Position numbers: made by a program. Below, piece after piece: positions 12,001 to 18,000 of a DNA stretch of 45,334 nt. Position 1 is the first letter of the stretch; each line of letters starts with the position of its first letter. The stretch comes from a virus (taxonomy: Duplodnaviria; Heunggongvirae; Uroviricota; Caudoviricetes). The DNA lies in IMG/VR virus record IMGVR_UViG_2877251553_000007, one strand, 5' to 3'.

Positions 12001-15000
12001 ACAATCGCGGCATTCATAAGAACTTTTGATATTTCCTGCAGCACTGATGAGGCCCAGCTGCGCCATTCCACTTTATTTCCGTTCAGCATCTCCGTGATGT
12101 TATTCACCATCCCTGAGATACCCTCCGTCGCAAGCTGTGCTGCCTGTGAGGCGTAATCGGACGCATTATCCACCCAGTTACTGAATCCCTCCTGCAGCCC
12201 TTTCTGCCAGTCCGCACGCTGCACATCCGATTCGGCATAAAAGGCTTCCTGCTCTTTCAGACGTTCACTCAGATACTGCGCGTTCTGTGCCAGAGCCTGT
12301 CTGTAAAAATCCTCACTGATATCCCCGGTCTGATACTGAGACTGAAGGTCCGCATCCTTCTGGCGGAAACTGTCGCGGATCTGCTGCAACTCCCGCATGC
12401 GTTCACGGAGCCGCTCTCCCTGCCCGTACCCCAGCAGTTCCGCTTCATTTGATGCACGCGCAGCCACATTATCATTCTTCAGGGTCTCTTCCCGGGACCG
12501 CAACTGCTCCCGGATTTTTTGCTGGTCAATCAGGGCCGCATTGCGCAGCAGTTCCTGCTTCTGCATCTCCGTCAGGGTTTTCAGTTCGCCCTGCGCAGTC
12601 TGGTATTTCAGCTTCGCCAGCTCTGTATTCTGCCCCGCCAGTGCCAGTTGCTCTTTCTGCTGCTTCAGCAGCCGGGAAAAACTGTCTTCCGCTTTTTCCG
12701 TCTCTGATTTTCCACCCGGGATTTGGGTTTATTCGCCTCGTTATTGCGCCAGGCTTCCAGGGCATTACTGATATAACGTTGTCTCGCCTCCTGATACGGA
12801 TCACCCACAAAACCGAGGTCATCCGCCGCATACCCCAGTCGGACACGCTCTTTTTCTTCCCCTTTCAGTCTGGACAGGGCCAGCTCACGCTCTGTTTTTG
12901 TCAGGGCACTCTGCTGTTTATCATCCAGAGTGGCCTGTGGCAGCCGTAACGGCACATTCACCAGTCCCTGCCGCTGCTGAAGCAGTTCATTACCCAGCCC
13001 CAGCAGACGGTTGAATTCCGTATGCTGACCGTTCATAACCAGCATGGACTGGTACACCTTATTCTGCTCTGCCGCCTGCTGACGAATTAACGCCACACGA
13101 CGGTCTTCCAGCCCGGCAAGCACATCCTGAATGGACTGCGCTTTTTCCTGCATCAGTGCCAGACGGGACTGCTCAACGGCAAGCTGCTCTGTTGCCTGAG
13201 CAAGCCCTTCCGTTACGGTCTTCACCGAGGTCAGATGGTTTATCATGAATCCGTCACCGGTCATCCAGCCCGGGTTCGCCAGAACATACTGATATCCTGC
13301 GATTTTTTCCTGCAGGGATTTCACCCGACTAGCCTGTTCATCAATCAGCCGGTTCTGCTCTGTCAGCGCCGCCCGTGTTCGTCCTTCATTATCTGAGGCT
13401 TCAGGCAAAGACATTGACGGCGTTTTATGCGCGATTTCATCTATCGTCAGTGCATACTGGCGCGCAGACTCCCAGGCCTGCTCCTGATTCTGGTACAGCG
13501 TGTACAATGCTGCAGCCCCCAGCATCACCAGTCCGGGTACGCCACCAACCAGCCCCAGCGCACCGCTCATCAGACGTGAGCCCACCGCCGTTGTACTGTT
13601 CAGCGCATTCTGGGCGGCGCTTCTGGCAGCAATATTTCTGTTCAGGCGTTCCTGTGTGGCCGCCAGACGGGCCTCTGCAGCAATCTGCATCTCCGTCCCG
13701 CGGGCTGCCGCCACGGCCTGCTGAGCACGGTACACGGCTGCCCTTGCCCGCGCCGTGGCAATCTGCGTTCCCCTGAACTGTGCTTCCGCCAGTGCAACTT
13801 CATTACGTGCAGCCGTCACAAGTCCTGCCGTGGCAGACATCGCTCCGGAGGCCATATTGCCAAAGTACCGGGCAACCCGACGGCAACCAGCGCCCCCACA
13901 GCTGTTGCCACATTATCAATCTGTCCGGCAACACCGTTCAGCACGCCGGAGAGCGTTTTTGTCACCCCGCAGGCCTCATTCACTTCGCCCACCCAGGCCA
14001 TAAAGGCGTTTTCCACCTTCGTGATACTACCGGAAACCGTTTCCGGCATGGCCGCATATTCATCACGTAATATCCCCAGCTGGCTGATTAACACAGGGAC
14101 CACTTTATCCGCTGTCAGTTTTCCGTCATCCGCCATTGCCTTCAGATCTTTACGGGCCACACCCATCCCGCAGCAAGCGCGCGGATCACCCGGTCGCCAT
14201 TTTCGTTAACAGCATTAAATTCTTCGCCACGCAGTACACCCTGTGCCAGTGCCTGGCTGAACTGGGTGATCACCGAACCGGATTCCGCAACTCCAGCCCC
14301 TGACAGTTTCAGTCCTGTCGAAATGGCCTCCGTCACCTTCAGCACATCATCAGCACTGTAACCATATTCACGCATCGAGGCAGCCGAACGGGCAAACAGG
14401 GCCGCATTATCCGAAAACGCGGTACCTGTTCGCTGACTGATATCCATCAGCACTTTCTGTGATGACGAGAATTCATCCGATGACTGAGATGCCTGTTTCA
14501 GACGGGCCTTCACGGAACCCCACTCATCGGCCAGCGAAATCAGGTGTCCGGTGGCAAAGGCACCGGCAAATGCGCCAGCCATTCCGACAGCAGAACCGCG
14601 AATTTCCGTCAACTGACTGTTCAGTTCTGCAAGGGCGCGGCGCTGTTCCCGTGCGGCAGCAGCGGCATGACGTCCGCCATTCTGCAGGGTCCGGTAATAT
14701 TCACTGCCCATACGGGACGCCCGCTGGATCTCCGACTGGAATGACTGTGAATTTGCCGAAATTTTGAGTGTCGTTACGGGGAAGTCATCTTCACAGGGAT
14801 CTTCGGTCAGTTAGTATTACCGACATCCATTCACCAACTTACCGGAGATAATCGATGTCAAAACCCCGATGGACCATTGAACAGAAAAGGCAGCACGTTG
14901 CTGCCTGGCGCGCCAGTGGTCTTACACGTCAGCAATACTGTGAACTCAACGATATTCCCTTCACATCACTTCGCGAATGGCCGCAGGATGTCGCAAAAGC

Positions 15001-18000
15001 TGAACGCCGGGCAAATGAACCGACCGTTCTTCCCGTTCATATTGCGCCACCACTGCATGCTGATGTACCACAGCCCGTCACGAATGAGCCAGTCACGCTC
15101 TTCCTTCCCGGTGGAGTACGGATGTGCTGTCAGCCGTCACAACTTACCGATGTCTTCAGGGCACTCAAATATGCTCAGTCCTGATAATGTCTTCATCGCA
15201 ATTAAACCTGTTGACATGCGCCGGGGCATCGACTCACTGACGCAGTATATACAGGATGAACTCCGGTCGACATGGCATGAGGGAGCCGCCTTCGTCTTTG
15301 TTAACAAAGCCCGTTCGCGTATCAAAGTTCTCCGGTGGGATAAACACGGGGTGTGGTTGTGTACCCGCCGTCTGCACAAAGGCAGCTTCCGCTGGCCACG
15401 TGCAAATGACGCTGCCTGGCACCTCACTCCCGACGAGTTTAACTGGCTGATTGCCGGTGTTGACTGGCAGCAGGTTAAGGGACATGACCTGACGAAATGG
15501 GTCTGGCAGAATGAACCTGAACTGCGCCCTGAAAACACGCAAAATACACTGCTAACTCAGTGAAAAATAATGAATATCCGTATCTGGAGTGGTATACTCC
15601 CCTGTATGGATATCTCCGCTCTCAACACCACGAATGACATCGAAAAACTGCGTGCTATGGCACTTGCCATGGTACAAGAAGTCATGTCGGAGAATGCCGA
15701 AAAAGAGCGGGAATTACTGGAGAAAAGCCGGCGCATCCAGCTTCTGGAAGAAATGCTGAAACTGGTTCGTCAACAGCGCTTCGGAAAAAAATGTGAAACG
15801 CTGGCTGGTATGCAACGCTCCCTATTCGAAGAGGATGTTGATGCCGATATCGCCGCGCTTACCGCACATCTGGATAAACTGCTCCCGCAATCCCCTGAAG
15901 AAGATGAAAAAGCGTCCCGTTCACGCCCGATACGCAAACCCTTACCGGTTCATCTTCCACGGGTGGAAAAAATTATCCAGCCGGACACTGACCATTGCCC
16001 TGAATGTGACGAGCCGCTGCACTATATCCGCGATGCGGTGAGTGAAAAGCTGGAGTATATTCCCGCTCACTTTGTGGTGAACCGTTATGTCCGTCCGCAA
16101 TACAGTTGTCCCTGTTGCCAGAAGGTGTTCAGCGGTGAAATGCCGGCACATATCCTCCCGAAAAGTGCCGTTGAGCCATCAGTCATCGCACAGGTGATCA
16201 TCAATAAATACGGTGACCACCTGCCTCTGTATCGCCAGCAACAGGTCTTTGCCCGTTCAGATGTCGGGCTGCCCGTCAGTTCGATGGCTGACATGGTTGG
16301 CGCGGCGGGTGCCGCATTATCTCCCCTGGCGGCGTTACTCCATCGCGAGTTGATAAACCGTCCGGTGGTGCATGCAGATGAGACTACCCTGAAGATCCTG
16401 AACACGAAGAAAGGCGGTAAATCCTGCTCCGGTTATCAGTGGGCATACGTCAGTGGAGAAAGGACGGGACCGTCAGTTGTGTGCTTCGACTGCCGGACCG
16501 GACGTAGCCATGAGTATCCTGAAAACTGGCTTCAGGGCTGGGGCGGGACGCTGGTTGTCGACGGACATAAAGCATACCGGACTCTGGCAAACAAAGTGCC
16601 GGAGATCACGCTGGCCGGATGCTGGGCCCATGCCCGCAGGGGCTTCGCCGACCTGTATAAAATCAGTAAAGATCCACGGGCTGCCATAGCCGTGAAGAAA
16701 ATCGCGGGGTTGTACCGTCTTGAGAAGAAGATCAGTAGCCGCCCCGTGGAAAAAATCCGCCAGTGGCGACAGCGTTATGCCCGTCCGATACTGGAAGAAC
16801 TGTGGTCATGGCTTGAAGAGCAGGAACCGCAATGTTCTCCGGGAAAGGCATTACACAAAGCCATTGCCTATGCGCTGTCTCATCGCGTGGAACTGAGCCG
16901 CTTCCTGGAAGATGGTGCGGTGCCGCTGGATAATAATGTGTGTGAACGGGCCATCAAAAACGTGGTTCTGGGCAGAAAATCGTGGCTGTTCGCCGGTTCG
17001 CAGATGGCGGGAGAACGCGCCGCGCAAATAATGAGCTTGCTGGAAACCGCGAAACGCAACGGTCTGGAGCCGCATGCCTGGTTGACAGACGTCCTGATGC
17101 GTCTGCCGGAGTGGCCGGAGGAGCGACTGGCAGAGTTGCTGCCTCTTGAGGGATTTACCTTCTCCGGGTGAGTGATACCTGCCGTCAGGTGTTCGTGCAC
17201 CGGGCCATAACCTGCAGTCGGGAGTTGAACTCCTGACGGCAGGAAATGAGCCAGACCAGCAACCACGCGGGCTGACAGCGAATAAGAACCTGAATCAGCC
17301 CGGAGTCATTCCCGGGTCAGTACATCATCACCTGCAATTAATCCCCGAGTCAGTACTTCGCGGCCTGACGCGATCACGCTACTCAGTACTTCAGAGCCCG
17401 CCTCCGGTACCTGCCTGGCGATCGCCTCTGTGCAACAAAATAAATCAACCGTTATCAAACCACGAGCGTTCGTATGCGCCGCCGATGACGCGCGCCTGAA
17501 AAACGCGTCAATATGAGTTCCCCGGAAGCTTACAATTTTGATAATCAGTTCACGTAACGTCGCCATTCACCTTTCTCCGGGCGTAAAAAAACCGCCTCAG
17601 CGGTTCTCATCATTCATGACTGTGCTGCAAAGCTCAGCGCGTCTTCCAGCGCCGCAAACGGATCCACCTCCGGCTTATCCTCATCCTCGCCCCAGCAGAG
17701 CATGACGTCCTTCAGTGCAACATTCATCCCCTGTGCCCCGAAAACCGCTTTCACGATCTGTGCATTACGGATATCCCCGCGCTCATCACCCAGCGGGGAT
17801 ATCCTGTCGAACTCCATCCACATCATCGCCTCGCTCGCACTCAGGCTGTGGCGCAGTTCGGATAAGGTGCGCCCCAGACGGAGCGCAAGTCGCATCAGAA
17901 AGCGAATTTCCGGGCGGGCTACTTTTTTCTGGCCGACTCTGCATCAGCGATCAGTTCCAGTGCCTGACGCCGCAACCGGGCATGTACCGGACCATAGACG

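Follow-up and report, generated by a model that had tools for sequence, protein, structure and literature searches.

Genes and ends of the IS66-family element

The stretch of 45,334 nucleotides analyzed here (the window; IMG/VR record IMGVR_UViG_2877251553_000007, Caudoviricetes) contains an insertion sequence (IS) of the IS66 family, the three plus-strand genes of which, tnpA, tnpB, and tnpC, are set between the minus-strand tail genes of a phage. The tnpA gene (14855..15184, +) encodes an accessory protein of the family, of 109 amino acids, with a helix-turn-helix (NF047593, 50.8 bits vs. a cut-off of 28), and the RefSeq copies annotate the same coordinates. This gene overlaps by 14 nucleotides with tnpB (15171..15563, +), which is also annotated in RefSeq, and encodes an IS66 Orf2-type accessory protein of 130 amino acids (NF033819, 115 bits; PF05717, 120 bits). 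The third gene, tnpC (15606..17171, +), encodes an IS66-family DDE transposase of 521 amino acids (NF033517, 439.7 bits vs. a cut-off of 180; PF03050, 301.6 bits; PF13005, PF13007, and PF13817), or 533 amino acids, if translation begins at the alternative in-frame ATG at 15570. An earlier note on this DNA had recognized an IS66-family element with these three genes, and the family profile scores of all three proteins bear this out.

All three reading frames are intact, and their arrangement is that of the family, with tnpA, tnpB, and tnpC, the last for an IS66-type DDE transposase, following each other closely. The overall length of 2766 bp fits the IS66-family range of approximately 2.4–2.8 kb, and captured elements of the family are known with lengths of 2731 and 2829 bp (PMC3281130, Table 2). 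A candidate sigma-70-like promoter (14790..14817, +) lies upstream of tnpA, with TTCACA, a spacer of 16 nucleotides, and TAGTAT, as a match to the consensus only, at 9 of the 12 positions.

The ends of the element were subjected to three independent tests, that is, comparison with other copies of the element, the target duplications found elsewhere, and the empty site. A megablast search with positions 14700-17620 against 5426 complete Escherichia coli genomes recovered 224 records with near-full-length copies, and, among the matches listed, nearly all the best full-length copies cover query positions 69-2834, which correspond to 14768-17533 of the window, with identities of up to 99.7%. In RefSeq, the genes of these copies are named tnpA, tnpB, and "IS66-like element ISEc49 family transposase", and the TnpC of the window is identical at 518 of 521 residues to the translated coding sequence (CDS) of one of them (L001), annotated under that name as WP_032179616.1. 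In the ISfinder convention, copies that share more than 95% nucleotide identity belong to the same element, and the window copy is 99.7% identical, over its full length, to copies carrying the RefSeq name of the ISEc49-family transposase. Two of the RefSeq copies, at NZ_CP065614 165719-168484 and NZ_CP048920 892548-895313, share with the window copy the length of 2766 bp, the ends, and the three genes, with 99.6–99.7% nucleotide identity, and are likewise bordered by 8-bp target duplications. Only the insertion site, which lies at codon 11/12 of a prophage tape-measure gene in the window, and a handful of point differences distinguish the window copy from these elements.

When both junctions were aligned with those of seven other copies, the homology began with GTGTCGTTAC and finished with GGAAGCTTAC in every case. 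In a search of the plasmids with the junction as the query, the tape-measure matches stop at 14767 and the closest IS matches (99–100% identity) start at 14768, among the matches listed. The boundaries proposed in the earlier note, 14780 and 17573, are thus replaced by 14768 and 17533.

The left terminal inverted repeat (14768..14793, +; GTGTCGTTACGGGGAAGTCATCTTCA) is a degenerate GTAA-type end, at the first nucleotide of which the homology to the other copies begins, and the right terminal inverted repeat (17508..17533, −; GTAAGCTTCCGGGGAACTCATATTGA, read inward) is a canonical GTAAGC-type IS66 end, at which this homology finishes. The two ends match as inverted repeats at 17 of 26 positions, and are 81% complementary over 21 nucleotides (pair I1). 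Each end is invariant across eight copies, and the copies that carry the left end transposed independently. The termini of the family, of approximately 20–30 bp, start with GTAA(GC), and this form is found in full at the right end (GTAAGCTTCCGGGGAAC...), with the left end starting GTGTCGTTAC. The earlier note had found no GTAAGC-type terminal repeat, and this claim does not hold, given that one is present at the right end, as GCTTAC at 17528-17533.

ISEc49 has in common with the classical IS66 and IS679, the prototypes of the family, the three-gene organization, a DDE transposase the N-terminal parts of which are of the zinc-finger and leucine-zipper types, GTAA-type ends, of which the left one is degenerate, and an 8-bp target duplication (PMC6778807), and differs from them in its left terminus, which is not GTAAGC. 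A related asymmetry between the two termini, with GTG at one and GTA at the other, has been reported for ISDge4, an active member of the family (PMC12898284), and imperfect inverted repeats, together with 8-bp duplications, are present in captured, active IS66-family elements (PMC3281130, Table 2). A sister IS66-family element of approximately 2773 bp, found on IncF/IncI plasmids (NZ_CP148454, here L010, and CP122702, here L015), has the same tnpA-tnpB-tnpC order and related terminal repeats. The sister IS carries GTAATGTTCCGGGGAACTCATCTTCACAG at the position of the left terminal repeat of ISEc49, and its ends are two near-perfect repeats, GTAATGTTCCGGGGAAC... and GTAATATTCCGGCGAAC..., in contrast with the GTGTCGTTACGGGGAAG of the left end of ISEc49. 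The latter is a drifted version that still works, as is evident from the independent insertions.

Knowledge of the family suggests that TnpC, the DDE enzyme, would bind and act on both terminal repeats, aided by TnpA and TnpB, and that the target would be cut with an 8-bp stagger and joined to the IS, with the subsequent repair giving rise to the duplication.

Target duplication, empty site, and other layouts

The octamer AATTTTGA is found as a perfect 8-bp direct duplication on both sides of the element, at 14760..14767, where it represents nucleotides 26-33 of the tape-measure CDS, and at 17534..17541, directly outside the right end. Target duplications of 8 bp are documented for IS66 (PMC6778807), and four other independent insertions of the element each have a duplication of this length of their own, that is, CTTCATTC at traF/trbE of a plasmid, CAGTAAAC at a chromosomal site, GCATTAAC beside agn43, and GTATGAAG in traX of a plasmid.

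The empty site was rebuilt by deleting the IS and one copy of the octamer, which produced a query of 800 bp. This rebuilt junction matches in one piece, with 100% coverage, 1245 E. coli genomes (the best, NZ_CP062876, with 99.4% identity) and 92 phages, most of which are Shiga toxin (Stx)-converting. The comparison with an uninterrupted junction between the tail genes T and H, which the earlier note had recommended, is thereby provided. In NZ_CP062876, the two flanks of the window overlap by exactly 8 bp (L008 4393-4400), with a single copy of the octamer at the empty site, and this overlap corresponds to nucleotides 26-33 of an intact tape-measure CDS of 1080 amino acids (L008 1183-4425).

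There is, then, little doubt that positions 14768-17533 of the window (plus strand, 2766 bp) represent one complete copy of ISEc49, inserted in a lambdoid, Stx-phage-like prophage, within its tape-measure gene, with the duplication of AATTTTGA. ISEc49 is already catalogued, and the case is that of a known element in an ordinary situation. Some points do weigh on the other side. The name ISEc49 rests on the RefSeq/PGAP naming of near-identical copies, rather than on an ISfinder entry, the TnpC of the window differs from that of L001 at three residues, and the left terminus, GTGTCG, departs from the usual GTAAGC start of the family. In addition, the exact insertion junction was found in none of the complete E. 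coli genomes, phages, or plasmids searched, and is seen only in this window.

The uniqueness of the junction is also what might be expected if a repeat copy had been wrongly placed in the assembly, and four deletions in homopolymer runs of the same gene could be sequencing errors. However, a misassembly would not yield precise ends flanked by a perfectly duplicated octamer of which the empty site has a single copy, which makes an artefact of this kind highly improbable. The layout that the earlier note had envisaged, in which an element lacking recognizable terminal repeats is set between T and H and the 9-bp CCATTCACC marks its bounds, is almost certainly mistaken. Two copies of the 9-mer are indeed present, at 14827-14835 and 17563-17571, two nucleotides away from the 14829-14837 and 17565-17573 given for them, but the left one is internal to the element, by 60 bp, and the right one falls at the ribosome-binding site and start codon of H, in phage DNA that belongs to the IS-free junction sequence matching phages without the IS. 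The homology to other copies halts at 14768 and 17533, rather than at the 9-mers, and approximately 0.36 chance 9-mer matches would be expected for two end regions of this size (200 × 470 bp; an estimate). The direct repeat is thus coincidental, and it is AATTTTGA, of 8 bp, that represents the target duplication. The earlier note had itself named ends placed elsewhere and a coincidental repeat as the outcome that would count against its layout; the second part of this has come about for the repeat, and the ends of ISEc49 lie at 14768 and 17533.

One further copy of the element (L003; NZ_AP042570 1202602-1205992) has no target duplication, and its two flanks are unrelated, namely a truncated istB of ISEc10 and a truncated DNA circularization gene. 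This arrangement suggests an IS-mediated rearrangement, after which the lack of a duplication would be expected.

The apparently non-coding tail of ISEc49

Downstream of tnpC, the element ends in an apparently non-coding 3' tail of 362 bp (17172..17533, +), which belongs to the IS in all the copies, is kept in the sister IS, and has left remnants on Escherichia and Shigella plasmids. The non-coding 3' region of ISEc49 appears to be longer than that of typical members of the IS66 family. The approximately 390 bp of non-coding DNA that the earlier note had placed after tnpC is indeed there, although, of the roughly 395 nucleotides between the tnpC stop and the start codon of H, only 362 belong to the IS. 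In a distant blastn search, the plasmid relatives of the tail were restricted to Escherichia, Shigella, and one Serratia record, and a scan of one-genome-per-species contigs recovered no wider relatives of TnpC.

A hairpin-forming inverted repeat begins 7 nucleotides after the tnpC stop (17178-17194 / 17227-17243), with arms of 17 nucleotides that are 94% complementary (one mismatch) and a loop of 32 nucleotides. The earlier note had seen this repeat, with its left arm starting at 17181 rather than 17178, and with arms of 12 rather than 17 nucleotides. The short CAGTAC(A/T)TC repeats that it had also reported are confirmed as three copies of TCAGTAC(A/T)TC, at 17317, 17350, and 17383, with a spacing of 33 bp (17308..17392, +; repeat family D10). 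Five copies of this motif were found in the whole window, vs. 0.13 expected, and one 33-bp unit is deleted in the relative L013. The sequence TCAGTACTTC also occurs twice, 161 bp apart, at 21969-21978 and 22130-22139 (+), inside an internally repeated gene of the head region (ORF 21415-22059, minus strand; ORF, open reading frame), and these copies are probably unrelated to the repeats of the IS tail.

The possibility that the tail is a coding sequence was rejected, given that its substitutions have no third-position bias (82:65:64 for the three codon positions, vs. 251:99:77 in tnpC). The ORF of 86 amino acids that reads through from the phage into the tail has no match in Pfam or NCBIfam, and no conserved reading frame with a start codon was found among the relatives. 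The sole long open frame common to these relatives lies at +1 relative to tnpC; it lacks a start codon, and the least variable of its codon positions is the third.

Overall, the identity of the sister IS to ISEc49 is approximately 70% in the coding region and 59% in the left 100 bp, and, like ISEc49, the sister IS ends in a tail of approximately 360 bp, in which the hairpin and the repeats are the same. The identity between the two elements reaches 97–100% at 17140-17229, a stretch that runs through the stop of tnpC into the hairpin, most of which it covers (the left arm and most of the loop), and that is the most conserved part of the element; it is still 87–93% from 17229 to 17319. In the last 41 codons of tnpC, there are one non-synonymous and eight synonymous differences, compared with roughly 30% of codons per class upstream. 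This block of high identity would fit either recombination with the sister IS or sequence constraint on a cis-acting region equally well. The tail is notably well kept for two ISs that are otherwise approximately 30% diverged.

The tail would most likely either hold sequences that act in cis on, or regulate, the right end, or be a block that has been exchanged between the sister ISs. The second of these possibilities, a mosaic block made up of the tail and the final ~100 bp of tnpC, derived from homologous recombination between ISEc49 and the sister IS and with no special function beyond carrying the right end, has a little less than an even chance of being correct. It is favored by the position of the rise in identity, from approximately 0.7–0.8 to 0.9–1.0, at about 17050, inside tnpC, where the codons with synonymous differences drop from approximately 31–35% to 20% in the last 41 codons, and by the loss of the 33-bp unit in L013, in which the IS end is retained. 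The identity falls only gradually toward the terminus (0.73–0.80 at 17410-17499), however, with no sharp second breakpoint, and the left 100 bp reach no more than 59%, although they too are non-coding.

The tail may also represent a functional module under sequence constraint in this IS66 subgroup, either as a region in cis that binds the transposase or a host factor, or as a small RNA, although this is rather unlikely. The contrast in identity between the coding region and the tail is consistent with constraint of this type, as are the regular spacing of the three motif copies, and the retention of the outer hairpin stem in the most diverged remnant (L011), with one compensatory change of C-G to T-A. 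The high-identity block starts within tnpC, however, and contains differences there too, for which recombination accounts equally well. The tail folds only modestly better than shuffled sequence, with z = −2.4 on the minus strand, which would favor a module of this type, but z = −1.7 on the plus strand, which counts against it. In addition, only one of the 33 predicted hairpin pairs has a double change, with covariation being essentially absent, and the plus strand has a C-A mismatch at the covarying position of the outer stem in four of the eight sequences. Another pair is a G-U wobble on the plus strand only, and neither strand is therefore consistently favored. No known RNA was matched by Rfam inside the IS at E <= 1, and the narrow range of the relatives, in Escherichia, Shigella, and the one Serratia record, also counts against a functional module. 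The narrower proposal that the tail shared by ISEc49 and the sister IS, with its hairpin next to the tnpC stop and its three motifs phased at 33 bp, acts either as a structured RNA or, through a phased series of binding sites, as a control on the use of the right end, is decidedly doubtful. If it were true, the IS66 family, the mechanism of which is still poorly understood, would gain a type of regulation so far undescribed for it.

The interrupted tape-measure gene and the prophage

The tape-measure gene H is interrupted after nucleotide 33 of its CDS, where codon 11 meets codon 12, by the IS, which runs antisense to the tail operon. The element is thus in the region of the T/H junction of a lambdoid tail operon, as the earlier note had indicated, but inside H, rather than exactly between T and H. 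The first 11 codons of the tape-measure gene (MATLRELIIKI; 17534..17566, −), cut off from the rest, provide the reconstructed N-terminus MATLRELIIKISANSQSFQSEIQRASRMGSEYY..., and, when the DNA upstream of the apparent start of the tape-measure gene is translated, ...KISANSQSFQSEIQRASRMGSEYY follows on from the MATLRELIIKI with which ORF 17306-17566 (−) starts. The earlier note had taken this ORF for the displaced 5' end of the tape-measure gene, which is correct for its start and its displacement, but only for these first 11 codons, given that the ORF is a chimera of 86 amino acids, in which 11 tape-measure codons are followed by 75 read-through codons in the IS tail.

The rest of the gene, from codon 12 onward, is found at 11554..14767 (−), based on its alignment with the intact gene of NZ_CP062876, with an approximate 3' end. 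In comparison with that genome, the tape-measure gene has four deletions of one nucleotide, all in C-runs (11808, 12714, 13875, and 14166), which split it into several ORFs, and which may represent either real decay or homopolymer sequencing errors. A consensus scan of the minus strand at the left end of the IS found no outward promoter able to drive the truncated tape-measure gene. The insertion would inactivate this gene, and would probably be polar on the tail genes that follow it.

Two other ISs are present in the prophage region. An IS1 of 768 bp (18699-19466) splits the major tail subunit gene, and its flanks rejoin in the intact homologue (overlap at L008 5547-5557). ISEc20, of the IS110 family, is found at approximately 556-2030, including an ORF of 398 amino acids (802-1998), and adjoins DinI-like and tail-fibre (Gp38-like) genes, being the third IS in the region. 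The prophage is defective and decaying, given that its tape-measure gene is split by ISEc49 and its major tail gene by IS1, with a third IS nearby. The definition of the boundaries of the IS matters little beyond correct annotation, although it follows that neither the chimeric ORF of 86 amino acids nor the truncated pieces of the tape-measure gene should be annotated as genes.

The prophage small RNA AgvB was considered as a candidate at the T/H junction, and was dropped, since AgvB and AsxR are placed at the moron site downstream of PR' (PMC4104026). A sub-threshold Rfam match to the Hfq-binding small RNA isrK was recovered at 17585-17652 (−), with 27.1 bits vs. a gathering score of 50 (E = 0.0038). 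This match overlaps the end of gene T and a hairpin with a T-run just upstream of the tape-measure start codon, and probably reflects terminator-like similarity only.

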